A stretch of 64,000 nucleotides of DNA from an uncultured Gammaproteobacteria bacterium. Its GTDB lineage: Bacteria > Patescibacteriota > Patescibacteriia > Magasanikbacterales > JBBTQS01. The notes beneath the pieces were generated by a model. It worked only from the letters and a program-made list of their open reading frames with translations. It ran no database searches and had not been told where the DNA came from. The translations under genes and the position numbers were made by a program. The stretch covers positions 8,007-72,006 of the forward strand of contig CAZVIA010000001.1 in the NCBI GenBank assembly GCA_964627525.1. The letters run 5' to 3'. This document shows, piece by piece, positions 7,460 through 64,000 of the stretch (the first letter of the stretch is position 1; every line of letters begins with the position of its first letter).

Positions 7460-9535
7460 ATGCCGAGAGAATATAGCTTAAATGACACACGTAATATAGG
7501 AATTATTGCGCATATTGACGCTGGTAAAACAACAGTTACCGAGCGTGTACTTTTTTATACAGGAAAAAAACATAAAATTGGAGAAGTTCATGAAGGTGAA
7601 GCTGAAATGGATTGGATGGAACAAGAGCAAGAACGTGGAATTACAATTACTTCAGCAGCTACAACATGTTTTTGGGGCGGCAAAAGAATTAATATTATTG
7701 ACACACCTGGTCATGTAGATTTTACAGCAGAAGTTGAACGTAGTCTTCGTGTGCTTGATGGTGGTGCTGTGATTTTTGATGGTGTTGCTGGTGTTGAACC
7801 ACAATCTGAAACAGTTTGGCATCAAGCAGATAAGTATGAAGTTCCAAGAATTTGTTTTATAAATAAATTAGATAGAACTGGTGCAGATTTTTATAAGGAC
7901 ATAGATTCAATTCATAATCGTTTAACAAAAAAAGCAATTCCAGTTCAGTTGCCAATTGGTGAAGAAGATAAATTTGAAGGTTTGGTAGATTTGCTCAAAA
8001 TGAAAGCTTTTATTTATAAAGATGATTTAGGAAAAGAAATTGAAGAAACAGAAATTCCCGAAGCATTAAAAGAAAAAGCTGAAAAATATCATTCAGAACT
8101 TGTTGAAAAAATTGTTGAAAATGATGAGGAATTAATGACCGCATATTTAGATGGAAAAAAACCTTCTGTAGAAGATTTGAAAAGAGTTTTGCGTAAAGCA
8201 ACAATTGCGAATGAAATGATTCCGGTTTTATGTGGTACTGCTTTGAAAAATAAAGGAGTGCAACTATTACTAGATGCAATTATAGATTATTTGCCTTCAC
8301 CTTTGGATGTTCCAGCTATTGAAGGACATGATGTTAAAGATGAAGAAAAAATTATTGAGCGCAAAGCAGATGATTCAGAACCATTTTCAGCTTTGGCATT
8401 TAAAATTGCAACTGACCCGTTTGTTGGTAAATTAAGTTTTTTCCGTATTTATTCTGGTATTTTAAAATCAGGTTCATATGTTTTAAATACAGTTTCAGGA
8501 AAAAAAGAGCGTATCGGAAGAATTTTGCGAATGCATGCAAACCATAGAGAAGATGTTGATGAAGTTTATGCGGGTGAAATTGCTGCTGCAGTTGGTTTAA
8601 AAGAAACTCGCACTGGTGATACTTTGTGTGATGAAAATAATCCAATTGTTTTGGAGTCAATTACATTTCCAGAGCCAGTTATTTCTGTTGCAGTTGAACC
8701 TAAAACAAAAGCTGATCAAGAAAAAATGGGAATGGCTTTGGCTAAGTTGGCTGAAGAAGATCCAACTTTTGTTGTTTCAACTAATGAAGAAACTTTGCAA
8801 ACAATTATTGCAGGAATGGGAGAACTTCATTTGGAAATTATTATTGACCGCATGAAGCGTGAGTTTAAAGTTGAGGCAAATGTTGGTGCTCCGCAAGTTG
8901 CTTATAAAGAAACTATTAAGAAATTGGCTGAAGCAGAAGGTAAATATATTAAACAGTCTGGTGGTCGTGGGCAATATGGTCATTGTTGGTTGCGAGTTGA
9001 GCCACTTGAGCAAGGAAAAGGTTTTGAGTTTATTGATAAAATTAAAGGTGGTACTATTCCTAAGGAATATATTCCAGCTATTCAAAAAGGTGTGAAAGAA
9101 GCAATGGCGCGCGGTATTGTTGCTGGTTATCCAATTTTAGATGTACAAGTTACTGTTTATGATGGTTCATTTCATGAAGTAGACTCTTCAGAAATGGCAT
9201 TTAAAATGGCTGGATCAATGGCTTTTCAAGCTGCTGCAAAAAAAGCTAGTCCAATCATTCTTGAGCCTTTGATGAAAGTTGATGTAACAACTCCAGAAGA
9301 GTATATGGGAGATGTAATTGGTGATTTAAACTCAAAGCGTGGGCAAGTTCAAGAAATGAGTGATCGTGGTCAAGTAAAAATTGTTAAAGCAATGGTTCCT
9401 TTGTCTGAAATGTTTGGCTACACAACAAGTTTGCGTAGTATGACACAAGGGCGTGCAAGTTATTCAATGGAATTTGCACATTATACAGAGGTTCCAAAAA
9501 ATGTTGCTGAAGCAATTGCAGAAGGTAAAAAATAA
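7460..9535 (+). CDS. fusA: Elongation factor G
   Basis: [10 protein letters not shown]1 and DTPGHVDF G3 motifs; 691 aa. Confidence 0.95.
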
Positions 9536-9577: not shown

Positions 9578-10033
9578 ATGTCTGATTACATGCGAAAAAT
9601 TTTAGATTTAATTGGGCGAACAGGGGATAGATGTATAGTAGTTCACCCAGAGACAGAAGATGCTTATGTTGTGATGGCAATTGAGGATTATGAAATGTTG
9701 GCTGATGCTGCTTCTGATTTAGAGTGGGATGATGAAGCCGAAGGAGAAGAGGATTATGATGAGGAATGGGAATTTGGTGATGATGTTGAAGATCAGGTGG
9801 TTGATGAAGTAAAAGAAAATGGAAATAATGCTTTGGAAGAATGGCGAAAGCAAATGCAAGCTTTGGCAGCACAAGATACTGACTCTGAAGAACCATTTGA
9901 GATTGCACTTTCAAGTGTAAGGCAAGATGATGAAATTAAAGGAGAAATCAAAATTGAGGAAATTCCACAAGCAGAAGCTGAAAAAGTTGAGGGAAAAGAT
10001 GATGATAGGTTTTATATAGAACCTGTAGAATAA
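9578..10033 (+). CDS. Acidic hypothetical protein with a Phd/YefM-like N-terminal segment
   Basis: N-terminal RCIVVHPETEDAYVVMAIEDYEML resembles the Phd/YefM antitoxin core; the rest is a D/E-rich low-complexity tail. Confidence 0.35.
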   Translation: MSDYMRKILDLIGRTGDRCIVVHPETEDAYVVMAIEDYEMLADAASDLEWDDEAEGEEDYDEEWEFGDDVEDQVVDEVKENGNNALEEWRKQMQALAAQDTDSEEPFEIALSSVRQDDEIKGEIKIEEIPQAEAEKVEGKDDDRFYIEPVE

Positions 10034-10055
10034 ATTAGCCAACATAAAATAACCC

Positions 10056-10205
10056 GCACACAAATAAAAAATACTTCTAAAGGGCTCTGCGTAGGGTCGC
10101 CAGCATGGTGTCCGACCGTAGGTCGGACTGGTGACCACGAGCAAAGAGCGAATGCGCCGCAGGTGCGCGTGAGTGTCCCGATAGAAGTATTTTTTATTTG
10201 TGTGC
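10056..10205. repeat. Inverted-repeat element: 23-bp perfect IR (gcacacaaataaaaaatacttct / agaagtattttttatttgtgtgc) flanking a 104-bp GC-rich core
   Basis: IR arms at 10056-10078 and 10183-10205 are exact reverse complements. The core contains a perfect hairpin gtccgac-cgtag-gtcggac. Confidence 0.6.
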
Positions 10206-10310
10206 TTTTGTTTTTATTGACTAATTTATTAGTATTTGTTACTATGTATAGTCGTCTGTTGCTAATTAGTAAGTGGCGGGTGACATTAATTGGAAAAAGG
10301 AGAGTTTGCT

Positions 10311-11189
10311 GTGACAAGGAAATATCCTGTCTCCGGCGATCTTTACAAGAGAATTGATGCAAAAATGTCTGAGCTCAAGCGAATGCTCAGACAAAAGAAA
10401 GGGTGTATATTTGACCCTGCTGATCTTTTTGTTGCTTTGCAGTACTTGATTGATGGAAAGATCACAACACAGGATTTGATTGCAGTGTCTTTGAGAAAAG
10501 ACGAGCAAGCTCAACAACCTGCTGTGCGCATGGATAAGTTGTTCCTTTCTCCTGGGGAGCAGTGGTCCTTGTTTCTTGAGTACAATGAGAATCTACCTGA
10601 TGAGTTGAGATTCACCAAAGAAGAACTTTTGGCTTTTTGTATGGAAGGTGGTAATCCTAATCCACCTGAACTACCAGAAGACGCAAGTCCTCTCACGGTA
10701 GTCCAGCTCGTTCCTTATCAAGAAACAGTAGAAAAAACCATTGCGTTCTTGCTGGGTTTTGTTCAAAGCCAAATGGAAAAGCTCGGGCTGAACTACTACC
10801 AATGGGAAGGGTATAATGATCTTTTGACCAAAAAAGATGTAATCCGTCTTCTCCCAGGTATTGAACATCCAAGAAAGTGTCTTCGTTGGGAAATCGTAGA
10901 TCTTGGTGCAAATAGAGGAAAAAAGCCTTGTGATGTGCGAAATGAGAACAGTCCTCATGCAGCAGTACTAGCTGCAGCAGGATTTCACACCAACTGGTCA
11001 ACAAGCATGGATGGAGATAAAATCCCATACGTGTTTATGCCTGGGTATCAGGTTACTGTTCCAAGTGGTGATTCGTGGCAGTACGTGCCTCACATCTGGT
11101 TCCATCAGCACGATCGCAGGCTCAGGATCGGCTGCAGCTGGGATGGCTACTGCAACCAGGGTTGGGCTGTTGTGGTGGTTGCGATTTAG
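10311..11189 (+). CDS. Hypothetical protein (ORFan) on a GC-rich insert
   Basis: GTG start with AAGGAG 9 nt upstream (the ORF track used TTG at 10290). Higher GC and GC3 than neighbours. C-terminal Cys/Trp/His-rich motif; no recognisable domain. Confidence 0.5.
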   Translation: MTRKYPVSGDLYKRIDAKMSELKRMLRQKKGCIFDPADLFVALQYLIDGKITTQDLIAVSLRKDEQAQQPAVRMDKLFLSPGEQWSLFLEYNENLPDELRFTKEELLAFCMEGGNPNPPELPEDASPLTVVQLVPYQETVEKTIAFLLGFVQSQMEKLGLNYYQWEGYNDLLTKKDVIRLLPGIEHPRKCLRWEIVDLGANRGKKPCDVRNENSPHAAVLAAAGFHTNWSTSMDGDKIPYVFMPGYQVTVPSGDSWQYVPHIWFHQHDRRLRIGCSWDGYCNQGWAVVVVAI

Positions 11190-11355
11190 GGGAGTAATAT
11201 AGAACTTGAAGCTAGGAAACTAGCAACTTGGAAATCCTTGGTTCTTGTAACTTGAACCTTGGATTTCTTTTTTATATTTTGAACTTTGGGTTTTTAGAAT
11301 TTAAATATTGGTGCACCTTTAAAAAAATTATGTAAAAAGTTTTTCTAAAAATTTC

Positions 11356-11367
11356 CCTAAATTTAGC
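11356..11367. promoter_or_regulatory. Palindromic motif copy 2 (cCTAAATTTAGC, 11/12)
   Basis: TTTCCCTAAATTTAGCAAAAAAA, about 30 bp upstream of the tuf promoter. Confidence 0.4.
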
Positions 11368-11393
11368 AAAAAAATCATTCACACATAAAGCAC

Positions 11394-11423
11394 TTGACAC
11401 CATATACTCCAAAATGCTATAAT
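11394..11423 (+). promoter_or_regulatory. tuf promoter TTGACA-N18-TGC-TATAAT-CCCA
   Basis: Consensus -35 and -10 with extended TGn and a CCCA discriminator. Confidence 0.7.
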
Positions 11424-11512
11424 CCCACCGCTTTTATTAAGCTTTTATTAACTTAAATAAGCGATTAGGCAAGCTTAGGCAATGCCGTCGCAGTAAGATA
11501 AAGACCATTCAT

Positions 11513-13112: not shown

Positions 13113-13364
13113 TTAACCAGATGGGAGTTGTAATGCAATAAGATCCAGCTGTCTTTATAGATAGCAAGGAAAACATTGTGGCACGTCTAACATCTAGAGG
13201 ATTTTTCCAGCAAAAATACTAAAAAAACTTCTTCAGATAATTTTATTGAGGAAGACTAGAAATTAATGTTTTTTTGTGATAAAATATTGCAGTAACAAAA
13301 ACACTAGTTTCTAGTCTTTTGCATTACACATACACATTACAAAATACACTAGACTAGATAGAAT

Positions 13365-13976
13365 ATGAAATTCATAATCGGTACAAAACTTAATATGACT
13401 CAAGTGTTCCAAGAAAGTGGAATAGTTGTTCCTGTTACACGTATTTCTGCTGGACCTTGTGTTGTAGCGCAAATTAGTGAAGTAAATGGGAAAAAACAAG
13501 TTCAATTAGGTTTTGGTAAAGCAAAAAAATTGAAAAAACCAATGAAGGGTCATTTAAAAGATTTGCCAGATGTTTGTCATTTGCGTTCATTTAATACTGA
13601 TCAAGAATTAAATCGCGGTGATGTTGTTGGTGTGGATTCTTTTGAAGCGGGTGAGCGAGTTGGAGTAACTGGAACAAGCAAAGGAAAAGGTTTTCAGGGT
13701 GTTGTAAAACGACATGGATTTCATGGTTCTCCAGCATCACATGGTCATAAAGATCAGTTGCGTATGCCAGGTTCTATTGGTGCAACAGATGCTGCCCGTG
13801 TTTTTAAAGGAACAAGAATGGGTGGTCACATGGGTGATGAGCGAGTAACTGTAAAAAATTTAGAAGTAGTTCAAATTGATCCTGAAAAAAATGAAATCAT
13901 GATTAAAGGTGCTGTTCCAGGAGCTAAAGGTGGTTTGATAATGATTTTTTCAAAAGGTGAAATGAAAAAGAGATAA
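13365..13976 (+). CDS. rplC: 50S ribosomal protein L3
   Basis: Conserved L3. Confidence 0.9.
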   Translation: MKFIIGTKLNMTQVFQESGIVVPVTRISAGPCVVAQISEVNGKKQVQLGFGKAKKLKKPMKGHLKDLPDVCHLRSFNTDQELNRGDVVGVDSFEAGERVGVTGTSKGKGFQGVVKRHGFHGSPASHGHKDQLRMPGSIGATDAARVFKGTRMGGHMGDERVTVKNLEVVQIDPEKNEIMIKGAVPGAKGGLIMIFSKGEMKKR

Positions 13977-14613: not shown

Positions 14614-14892
14614 ATGGATAATATTTTGCTAAGCACACATATTACAGAGAAAACAGCTGAACGAGAAGACAAAGGCGTTTATACTTTTGAGGTTTCTGAT
14701 GCTGCAAATAAGTATATGGTAGCTCAAGCTGTAGAAAAAATGTTTGGTGTGCAACCAGTAGCAGTTCGTATTATTAAAAGAAAAGGAAAGAAAAAAAGAT
14801 ATGGAAAGTTTTACGGAAATCGTAAAGATAGAAAGTATGCGATTGTAAGTTTGAAAAAAGGACAAACAATGAGTTTGCATAAAGGAGTCTAA
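14614..14892 (+). CDS. rplW: 50S ribosomal protein L23
   Basis: Size and position; conserved L23. Confidence 0.85.
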   Translation: MDNILLSTHITEKTAEREDKGVYTFEVSDAANKYMVAQAVEKMFGVQPVAVRIIKRKGKKKRYGKFYGNRKDRKYAIVSLKKGQTMSLHKGV

Positions 14893-29501: not shown

Positions 29502-29798
29502 TTAGGCTGCTTCGTCGATTTGGAGCTGGAAGAGCTCTCGCTCTGCCATCTTGAATCGGAACAGTGCCGTTCCGGGAATGGTCGCTCCTTGGACACGCTC
29601 GATGATCGAACGTTCCGTAAGAATTTCCATTCCTTTATGGAACTCTTCCAGATCAGTACTCTGACCCACAGAACTAGGGACGAAATCCCTGTCTGTGTCG
29701 AGCTGCACTACGAAGCGCGGCTCGCCAAGGGACTGGGCAGTCCCTCGTGCCAAAATGAACAGATCGACAAGCAGGTTGCCTGCGAGCGGATTCAGCAT
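29502..29798 (-). CDS. Hypothetical small protein (98 aa) on a GC-rich insert between scpA and scpB
   Basis: GGAGGG SD 6 nt before the second ATG; own consensus promoter and terminator; GC and GC3 well above neighbours. Confidence 0.5.
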   Translation of the reverse strand: MLNPLAGNLLVDLFILARGTAQSLGEPRFVVQLDTDRDFVPSSVGQSTDLEEFHKGMEILTERSIIERVQGATIPGTALFRFKMAERELFQLQIDEAA

Positions 29799-29865
29799 GT
29801 TTCCCTCCATAGAAACTTAGCTGAGGTGATCGTCGTGCAACGGCCTTTCCACTGCAAAACAGAAT

Positions 29866-29895: not shown

Positions 29896-29925
29896 TCTTA
29901 GGTTTACACATGTAAGATTTTTTGG

Positions 29926-29937
29926 CTAAATTTAGCG
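29926..29937. promoter_or_regulatory. Palindromic motif copy 3 (TTTTTTGGCTAAATTTAGCGAAAAA) between divergent promoters
   Basis: Perfect 12-bp palindrome. Confidence 0.5.
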
Positions 29938-29976
29938 AAAAATGCAAGTTTTTAAAAAATAAGATATAATACTAAC

Positions 29977-50027: not shown

Positions 50028-50355
50028 ACTACGTTATCAAGTGATGACACTTACAATTTTCGAGGAGAGAGAAAAAGGGTTATGTTTTTATGTAGCCTAA
50101 TAAAAAGCGGTTTCTCCTCAAGTAATCCGCTTTTTGTTTGAAAAATCGGAATAAGGAAAGTGTAGAGGAGGGAATGTTTTACTAGGAAGGCTTATATTAC
50201 TAAAGTTTCGGCCTTAATCCCAGTGCAACTTCTTCTGCACCTTCCTTAGTCCGATTGGACATGGACTCTTGGGACCAAACAAGAGTTGTAAGTACGTTCG
50301 TTACTTTGGGTGTGCGTTGGTCCGCATGTCCAGAGAGTCAAAGGGGACTTTCAAA

Positions 50356-51774
50356 ATGTCGAGCCTTACCGCAGTAGTCGTGACCGAGCAGACCGACGAC
50401 ACCACCACCACGACCGAGGTGGAGGCCACCGTGGCCACCACCGACGTCGAGGTGATGCAGAACGACCAGGGGCTCGAGGCGCAAGACGCGTCCGAGCCGA
50501 CCTTCGGCCAGAAGGTCGAAGGGCTCTGCGCGCAGATCGACCCCGAGCTGGAGTGCTCGGGAGAGGGTTGCGAGCGTAGCCGTCGAGACGGCTACGTAGG
50601 AACGTTCCTGTTCCCGCCGGTCGCCCGCATGGGTGACATCCTCAGTCAACTGGCTGAGGAGGATGGTGGGGGGCGCCAGCGCGTGGAGGTCGGAGTGACC
50701 GACATCAGCGAGTTCGCACGGTGTCGTTCCTGCGCCACGCAGGAGCACAACCAGGAACTCGACCGCATCGTCGGAGGCATCCTCTCGCGTCAGGCCAAAA
50801 AGGCTCGTTCGGAAGAGCTCAGGGTGGCACTCAAGGACGAACTCGGGTTCGTCGAGTGCACGCACGAGGATTGCGGCTGCCTGATCTACGTCGAGGAGCC
50901 CTCGCGGAACGTTTTGGTGGCCACTTTCGGCAACCAGATCCCGCGGCGGTTGTACCCGGCGTTCGTGCCGAGTCTCGCCTCTCTCCGTGAGGAGTTGGAG
51001 CGCGACGCGACGGTCGAGGATCTCGTTTCCCGCGCACGATGCGCAGGTCACGCGGACACCTTGGCAAAGGGGTCGAGCAAGTGGCACAAGGCCAGCTCGA
51101 CCTTGGGGTTGATGCGTCAGGAGCTCGCGGATCGCGAGTGGCGCAACAACATCAACGGTTTGCTGCGCGGTGCCGGGGCGGAGCTGTGCTCGTGTTGTGG
51201 CGACCGGGCAGTCTTCCCCCACCAGGACGAGATGGTCAGTCACGAGCAGGCCGTTCGGATCTTCGGTTGTGAGGGCGACGTGCCCCAGCAGTCGGACCTC
51301 GTCGGGTACTGTTTGCCCGTCGAGTGGTTCGAACGACAGGGTGTGGTGATCCTGTCCGAGCGCGACCTCTTCTCGCACATGATGTGCAAGAAGTGCGCTA
51401 TCCAGTCCGGTAAGGAATACCGGTCCGGGCTCGAGCAGCGCGAGGCTGAGGGTGACTGGGAGAACGTGAAGGCCAGGGACATCAACGGTCCAATGTTCTT
51501 CAAGTTCACGGCAACGTGGAACCGGCTGGAGCGCGAGTTGCGCGGCAGCCGGGGAAGCGACCAGGGCTCGAGTTCGGGCTTGACTCGCGAGCAGCGTCAC
51601 CAGACCGGCGGTGCCTTCGGTAACGCGGCGAACATGGGTTCGTCGAGCTACCGCAAGGACAAGTCCGAGAAGCGGAGTGCGGACAAGGAGTTCCGTGACC
51701 TGCAGAAGGGCGACGAGACTGGCCGTACGGGTCGGTCGAAGGAGCAGAAGAATGGGGGTAAGAAGGACAAGTAG
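50356..51774 (+). CDS. High-GC Cys-rich hypothetical protein (ORFan; multiple CxxC-like knuckles, Thr-rich N-terminus, disordered basic C-terminus)
   Basis: GC3-biased codons on the + strand and an AAGGGGA SD before the ATG at 50356. The antisense 420-aa ORF is a typical high-GC shadow. The ORF-track start at 50269 lies in lower-GC sequence. Confidence 0.6.
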   Translation: MSSLTAVVVTEQTDDTTTTTEVEATVATTDVEVMQNDQGLEAQDASEPTFGQKVEGLCAQIDPELECSGEGCERSRRDGYVGTFLFPPVARMGDILSQLAEEDGGGRQRVEVGVTDISEFARCRSCATQEHNQELDRIVGGILSRQAKKARSEELRVALKDELGFVECTHEDCGCLIYVEEPSRNVLVATFGNQIPRRLYPAFVPSLASLREELERDATVEDLVSRARCAGHADTLAKGSSKWHKASSTLGLMRQELADREWRNNINGLLRGAGAELCSCCGDRAVFPHQDEMVSHEQAVRIFGCEGDVPQQSDLVGYCLPVEWFERQGVVILSERDLFSHMMCKKCAIQSGKEYRSGLEQREAEGDWENVKARDINGPMFFKFTATWNRLERELRGSRGSDQGSSSGLTREQRHQTGGAFGNAANMGSSSYRKDKSEKRSADKEFRDLQKGDETGRTGRSKEQKNGGKKDK

Positions 51775-57332: not shown

Positions 57333-57392
57333 CCCACAGGACAACAATTCTGTGGGGCTTTTCTATTTTTTCCCAAAAAAATAGAAAAGCCC
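57333..57392 (+). terminator. Tandem hairpin terminator
   Basis: cccacag-gacaacaattc-ctgtggg, then a 17-bp perfect IR gggcttttctatttttt/aaaaaatagaaaagccc. Confidence 0.55.
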
Positions 57393-61211: not shown

Positions 61212-64000
61212 ATGGCAAAAGTTGAAAAAATTGATTTTAAAAATGTTGAGAAAAAATGGCAAAAGTTTTGGGAAAAACACAAAACTTTTCATGCCCATGA
61301 TTTTGCAGATGAAAAACCAAAGTACTATCCTTTGGTAGAATTTCCATATCCATCTGGCGCTGGTTTGCATGTTGGTCATCCGCGCCCCTACACTGCTTTG
61401 GATATTGTTGCGCGAAAGCGACGTATGCAAGGTTATAATGTGATGTTTGCGATGGGTTGGGATGCGTTTGGTTTGCCAACTGAAAATTACGCAATTAAAA
61501 CCGGTCGTCAGCCAGCAGAAGTAACTGCGGAAAATATTGCGACTTTTAAAAAACAAATTCAGTCTTTGGGAATTTCTTTTGATTGGTCTCGTGAAATCAA
61601 TACTACTGATCCAAAATATTATAAGTGGACGCAATGGATTTTTTTGAAATTATTTGAAGCTGGTTTGGCTTATAAAGCAAACATACCAGTCAATTGGTGT
61701 TTGAGTTGTAAAATTGGTTTGGCTAATGAGGAAATTGTTGATGGTGCTTGTGAACGTTGTGGTGGTGAAGTTGAAAAACGAGATAAAGAACAATGGATGT
61801 TGGGAATTACAAAATACGCTGATCGTTTGTTGGAGGATTTGGATGGTGTTGATTATATTGAGCGTGCAAAAGTTCAGCAGAAAAATTGGATTGGGAGAAG
61901 TGAGGGTTCTGAAATTGATTTTAAAATTGTTGGGTCAGATGAAGTTGTGCGTGTTTTTACAACTCGTGCAGATACTTTGTTTGGTGCGACTTATATGGTG
62001 TTGGCGCCAGAGCATGAGTTAGTTGATAAGTTGCGTGAGAAAATAGGAAATTGGGATGAAGTTAAAAAATATCGTGCTAATGCTTGTAAGATAAAAGAAA
62101 TGGATCGTTTAGCTGAAGGTCGTGAAAAAACAGGTGTTGTTTTGAAAGGGGTGATGTGTGTAAATCCAGCAAATGGAGAAGAGATTCCTGTTTGGATTGC
62201 TGATTATGTTTTAACTGGATATGGAACTGGTGCAATTATGGCTGTTCCAGCACATGATGAAAGGGATTTGGAGTTTGCTGAGAAATTTAAATTAGAAGTG
62301 CTTGAAGTTGTTGGCGAAGATGGTGGTTTGATAAATTCTGGAGAGTTTGATGGTATAAATTTTGAAAAAGCTAAGAGTGCGATTACTGAAAAAGTTGGCG
62401 GTGAGATGACTGTTAAATATAAACTACGCGACTGGGTTTTTTCTCGTCAAAGATATTGGGGCGAGCCAATTCCTTTGGTTAATTGTGAGAAGTGTAAGGG
62501 TTGGGTTGCTTTACCAGAAACTGAATTGCCTTTGGAATTGCCTAAGGTTGAAAAATATGAACCAACAGACACTGGTGAATCTCCGTTGTCTGCGGTTAAA
62601 GATTGGGTGAATACAAAATGTCCTCAATGTGGTGGGTCAGCTAAACGTGAGACAGACACAATGCCGAATTGGGCTGGAAGTTCTTGGTATTTTTTAAGAT
62701 ATTGTGCGCCAAATGATGATGAAATTTTTGAGCATACAAAATTGTGGAAACGTAAAGCAATAAAACCAAATGCACATGACAAAGTTGTTTGGGAAACTTA
62801 TTTAAAAATCCGTGAGATTTTTGCAGAGGATAAATTGGATTTTTGGGTGTGTGGAAGTTTATTAATGAATGTTTTAAATAGAGAGATTTGGAAACACATG
62901 GATGATTTAGATGTTCATGTGCGAAGTTGTGATTATGATCGGGCGATTAAAGTGATGACTGCAAAAGGTTTTGTTGAAAGTGATCGCAAGCGTGAAGGTT
63001 CAATTACAATGACACATGCTGGAGTAAATATTGAGTTGATTGAAGTTTTTTGTGAGAGTGGTGAAGTGTATACAGTTTATTCTAATGGTCAGAAAATTTT
63101 AATGGCGGAAAATGATTTGGAAATGGTGGAGCGTGGTTCATTAAATGGTGTGAGTGTGCGAACTATTTCTCCATGGCATGCTTTGTATCAATATACTTAT
63201 TTACAAAAACATCTTGAGCGCGAAAAAGAAGGTGATGATGATAAAAAACAATTTTTGCGTGATTATTTGAACTCGCCAATGAATTATTGGATGGGTGTTG
63301 ATTGGTATAATGGGGGAATGGAGCATACGGTTTTGCATTTATTGTATTCTCGTTTTTGGAATAAGTTTTTGTTTGACTTAGGTGTTGTTCCTGTGAGTGA
63401 ACCTTATAATAAAAGAACAAGCCATGGTTTAATTTTAGCTAAGGGTGGTGAAAAGATGAGTAAGTCAAAAGGAAATGTTATAAATCCAGATGAAATTGTG
63501 GGCAAATATGGTGCTGATACTTTTCGTGTTTATGAAATGTTTATGGGGCCGTTTGATCAGACAGCTGAATGGGATACAAATGGTTTGATTGGTGTGAAGC
63601 GGTTTTTGGATAAGGTTTGGAAGTTGCAGGAAAAAGTTGATGATGTTGATGTTGTTGGGGGTGAAATAGGCGCTGGGCAAAATAAAGTTGATCAAAAAGT
63701 TTTGAAAAAAATGCATTGGGCAATTCACAAAGTTAGTGCAGATATTGAAGCTATGAGATTTAATACTGCGGTGTCTGCTTTGATGGAGTTGGTAAATGAT
63801 TTGGGAAAATTAAAAGTTGTGCCGTTAAGTGTGTATCGCATTTTAATAAAATTATTAAGTGTGCTTGCTCCGCATATGTGTGAGGAGTTGTGGTCTTTGT
63901 TTGGTGATAAGGATGTAAGTGTGAGTAAAGTTGAGTGGCCAGATTTTGATAAAAAAATGTTGGAGCAAGATGAGGTAACTTATGCTGTGCAGGTTAATGG
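61212..64000 (+). CDS. leuS: Leucyl-tRNA synthetase (3' partial, runs off the window)
   Basis: HVGHP (HIGH) motif; CP1 editing and zinc CxxC...CxxC motifs; KMSKS present near 63450; frame open to the window end. Confidence 0.9.
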   Translation, partial: MAKVEKIDFKNVEKKWQKFWEKHKTFHAHDFADEKPKYYPLVEFPYPSGAGLHVGHPRPYTALDIVARKRRMQGYNVMFAMGWDAFGLPTENYAIKTGRQPAEVTAENIATFKKQIQSLGISFDWSREINTTDPKYYKWTQWIFLKLFEAGLAYKANIPVNWCLSCKIGLANEEIVDGACERCGGEVEKRDKEQWMLGITKYADRLLEDLDGVDYIERAKVQQKNWIGRSEGSEIDFKIVGSDEVVRVFTTRADTLFGATYMVLAPEHELVDKLREKIGNWDEVKKYRANACKIKEMDRLAEGREKTGVVLKGVMCVNPANGEEIPVWIADYVLTGYGTGAIMAVPAHDERDLEFAEKFKLEVLEVVGEDGGLINSGEFDGINFEKAKSAITEKVGGEMTVKYKLRDWVFSRQRYWGEPIPLVNCEKCKGWVALPETELPLELPKVEKYEPTDTGESPLSAVKDWVNTKCPQCGGSAKRETDTMPNWAGSSWYFLRYCAPNDDEIFEHTKLWKRKAIKPNAHDKVVWETYLKIREIFAEDKLDFWVCGSLLMNVLNREIWKHMDDLDVHVRSCDYDRAIKVMTAKGFVESDRKREGSITMTHAGVNIELIEVFCESGEVYTVYSNGQKILMAENDLEMVERGSLNGVSVRTISPWHALYQYTYLQKHLEREKEGDDDKKQFLRDYLNSPMNYWMGVDWYNGGMEHTVLHLLYSRFWNKFLFDLGVVPVSEPYNKRTSHGLILAKGGEKMSKSKGNVINPDEIVGKYGADTFRVYEMFMGPFDQTAEWDTNGLIGVKRFLDKVWKLQEKVDDVDVVGGEIGAGQNKVDQKVLKKMHWAIHKVSADIEAMRFNTAVSALMELVNDLGKLKVVPLSVYRILIKLLSVLAPHMCEELWSLFGDKDVSVSKVEWPDFDKKMLEQDEVTYAVQVN

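Follow-up and report, generated by a model that had tools for sequence, protein, structure and literature searches.

A long inverted repeat with a GC-rich core between fusA and tuf of a Patescibacteria genome: a possible compound transcription terminator

The str operon and the inverted repeat

The DNA analysed here is a stretch of 64 kb (hereafter the window) from a genome of the Patescibacteria (candidate phyla radiation, CPR). The closest elongation factor G (EF-G) sequences (77–82% identity) come from Falkowbacteria, Komeilibacteria, Uhrbacteria-type and other Patescibacteria metagenome-assembled genomes. The window carries a str operon in the order rpsL (6527), rpsG (6949), fusA (7460–9535), ORF151, a long inverted repeat around a GC-rich core, a promoter, ORF292, a terminator, a second promoter, tuf (11513) and rpsJ. 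The inverted repeat together with its core is the element in question. An initial annotation had described it as 150 bp in length with 23-bp arms and had proposed a miniature mobile element, a structured small RNA (sRNA) or a protein-binding cruciform.

Upstream of the element, ORF151 (9578–10033, + strand) encodes a small acidic protein and is the last gene of the rpsL-rpsG-fusA unit; its homologues are found in the fusA-tuf spacer of many Patescibacteria. Downstream follow the sigma-70-like promoter TTGACT-17-TACTAT of ORF292 (10217–10245, + strand) and ORF292 itself (10311–11189, + strand), a strain-specific accessory gene between ORF151 and tuf with a GC content of 43–51% and a GTG start codon. 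Besides this promoter, ORF292 has a ribosome-binding site (RBS) and its own intrinsic terminator (GGAAATCCTTGGTTC, a 9-nt loop, GAACCTTGGATTTC and a T-run; ~11230–11275, + strand), which is 100% conserved on contig L001. In relatives, nothing but the ORF151 homologue is encoded in the fusA-tuf spacer, and after it come the promoter of tuf and a short hairpin in the leader. Therefore, ~1.36 kb (10034 to ~11392) can be regarded as extra DNA at this site. The tuf consensus promoter TTGACA-18-TATAAT (11394–11423, + strand) forms the right border of the inserted DNA, and similarity to the closest relative, L085, resumes at ~11393.

The two arms reported initially are indeed exact reverse complements, namely GCACACAAATAAAAAATACTTCT (10056–10078) and AGAAGTATTTTTTATTTGTGTGC (10183–10205). 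The extent of the pairing was underestimated. A10079 and U10182 form a 24th pair, and the perfect arms comprise 10056–10079 and 10182–10205 (+ strand), the outer end of the 5' arm being GCACAC, the GC-rich base of the stem. Beyond these, the repeat continues imperfectly with AATAAATTAGCCAA (10029–10042) against TTGACTAATTTATT (10217–10230), matching in 13/14 positions. A 2-nt indel separates the outer from the inner pairing in a gapped alignment with the reverse complement of 10206–10230. The outer left arm in this alignment, AATAAATTAGCCAACATAAAATAACCC (10029–10055, + strand), is A-rich and covers the TAA stop codon of ORF151. The outer right arm (10206–10230, + strand) is at the same time a U-tract, TTTTGTTTTTATT, read from the sequence and the arm alignment, and contains the −35 box of the ORF292 promoter. 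The whole palindrome thus measures ~202 bp (10029–10230) with ~50 nt per arm; it reaches into the stop codon of ORF151 on the left and into the −35 box on the right. The outermost parts are the least conserved parts of the arms.

This inverted repeat is by far the longest in the window. No arm match with up to 3 mismatches was obtained in 100 dinucleotide-preserving shuffles of the window, and the earlier statement that the repeat is unlikely to have arisen by chance is borne out. The chance expectation for a perfect 23-nt repeat within 600 nt was estimated by the authors at roughly 1e-6 to 1e-5 per 64 kb, assuming a per-position complement probability of ~0.27 in AT-rich DNA. Identical sequence in identical orientation was present in four independent assemblies, namely the window, a European Nucleotide Archive (ENA) scaffold (L089), a Joint Genome Institute (JGI) contig (L003/L090) and a Logan contig (L004). 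Thus, the element is not an assembly artefact. It is real and clearly non-random.

Predicted fold and proposed terminator function

The core (10079–10182, + strand, 104 nt) has a GC content of 63.5% compared to 36.2% for the window, which agrees with the GC-rich centre described before. In folding predictions, the whole element reached −81.5 kcal/mol on the + strand (z = −8.4) and −75 kcal/mol on the − strand. The core by itself folded with −45 kcal/mol on the + strand (z = −2.3; 3/200 shuffled sequences were equally good) and with −37.9 kcal/mol on the − strand. The + strand fold is favoured because of two G-U pairs, one each in helices P3a and P4. The predicted structure is a three-way junction, which consists of a long arm (P2, P3a and P3b) and a short hairpin (P4) and is closed by GG/CC and the 24-bp stem. 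On the + strand, P2 is predicted to pair 10084–10090 with 10141–10142 and 10145–10149, P3a 10095–10102 with 10129–10136, P3b 10110–10117 with 10121–10128 around a GUA loop, and P4 10152–10158 with 10163 and 10165–10170. P3b (GTCCGACC-GTA-GGTCGGAC, 10110–10128) corresponds to the perfect hairpin noticed initially; it comprises 8 bp with a 3-nt loop rather than 7 bp. In the prediction for a transcript truncated ahead of the 3' arm, the core has taken up its fold by itself, and the 5' arm is mostly unpaired.

Two features that were overlooked in the initial annotation, the U-tract and the operon context, lead to a reading as transcription terminator. The base of the stem, GCACAC/GUGUGC, contains G-C in 4/6 pairs, UUUUGUUUUUAUU follows directly (10206–10218) and the sequence upstream is A-rich. 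A stable hairpin with a G+C-rich base and a U-run directly behind it is therefore present. The element is located at the 3' end of a co-oriented operon and begins at the stop codon of ORF151, and the downstream gene with promoter, RBS and terminator of its own supports this operon-end position. In these traits (GC-rich base, U-tract, A-rich upstream flank and operon-end site) it resembles intrinsic bidirectional terminators including their multi-hairpin forms.

Relatives carry equivalent signals at the same position. In L085 (EF-G 82% identical), the acidic ORF is followed by a 4.5-kb island with six GC-richer orphan ORFs, and the site has a plain bidirectional terminator AAAAAAACCGCTT-AAAT-AAGCGGTTTTTT. 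In L026, where no island was called and the spacer is long, a simple terminator, GAAAAATGGCTTAAATAAGCCATTTTT, follows the acidic ORF. L086 and L088 have neither an island nor a terminator, and the tuf promoter comes directly after the acidic ORF. From this layout, the element occupies a terminator position that is found where extra DNA has been wedged in behind the acidic ORF.

It is proposed, with a probability of roughly 0.45, that the element acts as a Rho-independent terminator or insulator of compound type, topped by a branched cap. It would end the highly expressed rpsL-rpsG-fusA-ORF151 transcript before the accessory gene. The structural description given initially stands and a hairpin at the RNA level is the most plausible reading, but a terminator was not among the options listed there.

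In the proposed course of events, the GC-rich core would fold on its own into the compact three-way junction once RNA polymerase has left ORF151, while the A/U-rich 5' arm would remain free. The emerging 3' arm would then pair with the 5' arm, beginning next to the core and proceeding outward. The GC-rich base GCACAC/GUGUGC would pair last, just as the polymerase transcribes UUUUGUUUUUAUU, which would be the geometry of an intrinsic terminator. That the closing stem can zip co-transcriptionally and finish at the U-tract follows from the prediction for the partial transcript, with its folded core and largely free 5' arm. The accessory gene downstream would be shielded from read-through. As likely by-products, termination would leave the mRNA with a highly stable structure at its 3' end, and the perfect 24-bp duplex would be a plausible substrate of RNase III. 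The 104-nt GC-rich cap may have originated from an old insertion that hit a terminator loop.

Comparable long A/U-rich hairpins with U-runs occur elsewhere in the genome, at 13252–13318 and 57355–57392. The former has 22-nt A/U-rich arms that are 91% complementary and is followed by UUUUGC; it is located between rpsJ and rplC in the S10 operon and is attenuator-like.

Several observations weigh against a terminator. Canonical intrinsic terminators have stems of 5–14 bp and loops of 3–8 nt, whereas the element has 24 perfect and ~25 imperfect base pairs and a three-way junction of 104 nt as its 'loop'. This branched loop and arms of ~50 nt are far outside the ordinary size, and a consensus terminator scan misses the element because it allows for loops of 3–8 nt only. 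The arms form perfect Watson-Crick pairs and thus carry no strand information. The four assemblies are invariant and no homologue was found, and among the relatives the comparison draws on just two genomes that carry additional DNA at the site (L085 and L026). Finally, the pairing across the stop codon and the −35 box resembles an inverted duplication at the DNA level rather than selection on RNA. The cap, the ~50-nt arms and this pairing are left unexplained by terminator function. They fit a DNA-level origin, either by insertion of a GC-rich fragment into the loop of an A/T-rich terminator or by inverted duplication.

Homologues, copies and alternative origins

As an alternative to the terminator, a stable small RNA was considered, either from an independent sRNA gene or derived from the 3' untranslated region, with the ~104-nt core or the whole 150–180-nt hairpin as product. 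The A/U stem would then be an RNase III processing stem or a protective closing helix, and the terminator would merely set the 3' end. The GC content of the core (63.5%) is akin to that of this genome's tRNAs (58–61%), the core outfolds most shuffled sequences (3/200 as good), the + strand is preferred in folding and a perfect duplex of 24 bp has the right length for RNase III. The arrangement is also like the RNase III stems of rRNA precursors, in which the flanks of a structured, GC-rich RNA form a long, near-perfect duplex within a larger transcript. Unlike in those, no match to a known stable RNA was obtained for the enclosed sequence, and the likeness is a prediction from sequence. Candidate −10 boxes are present upstream (TAGAAT, 10026–10031; TAAAAT, 10045–10050), but the candidate promoter is weak (9/12, poor −35 box), while genuine promoters in this DNA are near consensus. 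For the core by itself, the z-score of −2.3 is modest, and the closest relative, L085, has just a plain terminator at the site.

Searches for RNA families also spoke against a stable RNA. In Rfam 15, with a scan that took in the signal recognition particle (SRP) RNA, 6S, RNase P, transfer-messenger RNA (tmRNA), 5S, riboswitches, ribozymes, retron msr and others, nothing was found on the element, neither at the gathering score for the whole window nor at E ≤ 10 for 9900–10400, on either strand. ARAGORN detected no tRNA or tmRNA on the element, and a tandem-repeat search gave nothing relevant. A likeness to 5S, SRP, 6S or hammerhead RNA was rejected by eye as no conserved motif was seen, in agreement with Rfam. 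For synteny, 80 fusA loci of Patescibacteria were compared, together with three closer relatives and additional flanks. No homologue in sequence was revealed by blastn, nhmmer or tblastx, and none in structure by a covariance model of the core in 1.04 Mb of related loci. As regards the structured-sRNA option in the initial annotation, a terminator-like end is present, the candidate promoter is weak and no homologue was found in the loci searched; the Rfam scan recommended there gave no match even at E ≤ 10. A stable RNA, which as a 3'-derived product would fit the same anatomy, is considered unlikely. A narrower version, in which the core would be a new, lineage-restricted three-way-junction RNA of ~104 nt, released from the 3' end of the str operon or protected by the 24-bp RNase III-type stem, with a function of its own and the terminator look as mere packaging, is improbable.

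The element was also compared with repetitive elements of other bacteria. The Correia elements (CREE/NEMIS) of Neisseria, ERIC/IRU of enterobacteria and RUP/BOX of Streptococcus are alike in their size of 100–200 bp, their long terminal inverted repeats and their location in transcribed intergenic DNA just past a stop codon. As RNA, elements of this type fold into hairpins; they can act as terminators and are cleaved by RNase III. They differ in being multi-copy families with target-site duplications (TA for Correia), while the present element is single-copy where searched, shows no duplication and has a GC-rich, non-palindromic core and degenerate outer ends.

No second copy was found in the window, with up to 3 mismatches or by blastn with word size 7, nor in ~14 kb of extra flanks (~78 kb together, with roughly 1 Mb of the genome lying beyond). 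There were no matches in GTDB genome contigs and none in viral contigs (three patterns), and BLAST against phages and plasmids found none; these collections do not contain the source contig, and the negative results are accordingly weak. A single match to a metagenome contig (L002), in a collection likewise without the source contig, proved to be a 20-mer that matches by chance, within a coding gene that is GC-rich and unrelated. Target-site duplications were absent at both the 23-nt and the ~50-nt boundary, with only a 2-nt direct repeat 'AG'. No transposase, recombinase or reverse transcriptase (RT) was seen among the ORFs of the window, which are all housekeeping genes or orphans, and no recombinase was seen in the extra flanks either. 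The miniature mobile element initially suggested thus lacks a target-site duplication, a second copy in the places searched and a transposase in the window. The blastn check for further copies and duplications recommended with it came back empty for ~78 kb of the genome, the relatives and the collections. It had been stated that the absence of other copies and of conservation would speak against the proposals, and as far as the searches reach, neither copies nor conservation were found.

A relic at the DNA level could take several forms, namely a miniature inverted-repeat element, a GC-rich foreign fragment in the loop of an A/T-rich terminator or an inverted duplication of the 3' flank of ORF151 around such a fragment. 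Terminator activity would then be incidental or retained from an ancestral hairpin. The arms are long (~50 nt) with the inner 24 nt perfect; the left arm begins at most 2 nt from the stop codon of ORF151, and a promoter box lies in the right one, both of which point to copying of pre-existing DNA rather than to selection on RNA. The GC signature of the core is like that of the orphan insertions at 10311–11189, 29502–29810 and 50269–51774, and the fusA-tuf spacer is a hot spot of insertion in this lineage. In addition, the terminators at this site in relatives have AAAT loops, to which the AAA...T that flanks the core may correspond. The absence of direct repeats at either boundary, of further copies in the DNA searched, of a transposase, recombinase or RT in the window and of an empty-site allele argues against such a relic. 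Moreover, the outermost arms are the least conserved, which is the reverse of terminal inverted repeats bound by a transposase. Overall, a DNA-level relic is considered unlikely.

On contigs encoding identical ORF151, NDK, IF-2, EF-Tu or S12, neither an empty site nor an inverted allele was detected, and all overlapping sequence was identical; many of these contigs end at the repeated 3' part of ORF292. These data also bear on an inverton, i.e. repeats that serve as recombination sites of an invertase and a 104-bp core that flips to switch a promoter or terminator. Like fimS-type invertons with inverted repeats of ~20–30 bp around a short segment upstream of a variable-type gene, the element has perfect repeats of 23–24 bp around ~100 bp and directly precedes a gene that is a candidate for the variable surface type, with a C-type-lectin-like fold. 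Unlike these, the segment has no promoter-like hexamers, the promoter of the downstream gene is outside the invertible part, no serine or tyrosine recombinase is encoded in the window or the extra flanks and a single orientation was seen in all four assemblies. An inverton is thus extremely improbable.

The proposed cruciform, or another structural site in the DNA such as a replication or recombination site, is very improbable as well. A palindrome of 202 bp could in principle extrude in supercoiled AT-rich DNA, but the 104-bp non-palindromic centre strongly disfavours this. No replication or recombination gene linked to the element is nearby, and the core, which folds better on one strand than on the other, speaks for a single-stranded species of the + strand.

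Neighbouring genes and accessory DNA

ORF151 has a Phd/YefM-like N-terminus, a C-terminus ...FYIEPVE and a weak match to a PHROG antitoxin. Its family (80–190 aa) occurs between fusA and tuf in many Patescibacteria (fusA-tuf spacers of L005–L088) and shares the Phd/YefM-like N-terminus, a central LTEDELLDKINRDIAxW motif and a C-terminal FY(I/F)EPVE, but has no match in Pfam or NCBIfam.

ORF292 has no match in Pfam, PADLOC, PHROG or NCBIfam. A single-sequence AlphaFold model was useless (pLDDT, predicted local distance difference test, of 34), while the alignment-based model was good (pLDDT 89.7). In the latter, the C-terminal half is modelled as a C-type-lectin-like fold, and the 3' end of the gene is a candidate hypervariable region. 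On L001, which has the only close homologue of ORF292, the upstream neighbour is divergently oriented and no such element is present. Several systems in which ORF292 would act together with the element were tried and rejected. A retron, an IS110 bridge RNA, a TnpB/IscB omega-RNA and a type III toxin-antitoxin system were discarded for four reasons, namely the lack of any Pfam, PADLOC, PHROG or NCBIfam match of ORF292 (and with it of any nuclease, RT or defence domain), the modelled fold, which is C-type-lectin-like and not that of a nuclease or RT, the promoter between the two and the L001 homologue without the element. The template repeat of a diversity-generating retroelement (DGR) was considered since ORF292 looks like a DGR target; the core is unlike 11030–11200 and no RT is encoded in the window. 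Apparent 3-kb matches to fusA, taken as possible inteins or introns, turned out to be a tblastn match running into tuf.

Upstream of tuf, a leader of recurring architecture was observed 50–100 nt before the gene in L006, L007, L014, L015, L019, L022, L029 and L088. It lies between promoter and RBS and consists of a closing helix ACGGCUGG...GGCCGU around one or two hairpins. The tuf leader in the window (11460–11500) is a simpler GCGA...UCGC hairpin, and the leader has no match in Rfam. A palindrome TTTTTGGCTAAATTTAGC(A/G)AAAAA recurs at 2399–2424, 11352–11371 and 29919–29942, in each case in intergenic DNA shortly before promoters (tuf, scpB), and could represent an operator bound by a transcription factor.

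Further GC-rich orphan ORFs are present in this AT-rich genome at 29502–29810 (− strand, 102 aa, between scpA and scpB) and 50269–51774 (+ strand, 501 aa, 65–72% GC), neither of which matches Pfam. The island of L085 (12800–17000), which separates the acidic ORF from tuf, contains six orphan ORFs of 101–224 aa with a GC content of 65% at most, as well as one 14-bp hairpin, GGTCGTCTGATGAT/ATCATCAGACGGCC, that is present twice (13900–13932 and 14628–14660). Together with ORF292, the orphan ORFs and the L085 island suggest a repeated gain of GC-richer accessory genes within conserved operons. At the end of the window, leuS (61213–64000, running off the window; 13725–16670 on L092) was called with 981 aa and a tRNA-synt_1 domain that is split in two. 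The protein is seemingly longer than typical bacterial LeuS, which suggests that it carries an inserted domain.

The element, single-copy and unconserved as far as searched, can be explained as an outsize form of a known signal. Interest in it would rise only if the core turned out to be an RNA that is expressed and conserved, or else a mobile insert with hairpin loops as its target. If the terminator reading is true, intrinsic terminators in the tiny AT-rich genomes of the CPR can be very large and branched and are then missed by standard terminator finders. Such a structure would then also keep a core operon of translation apart from the accessory genes that have been inserted in it. This is not a new principle, but it would be relevant for the annotation of operons and accessory islands in Patescibacteria.
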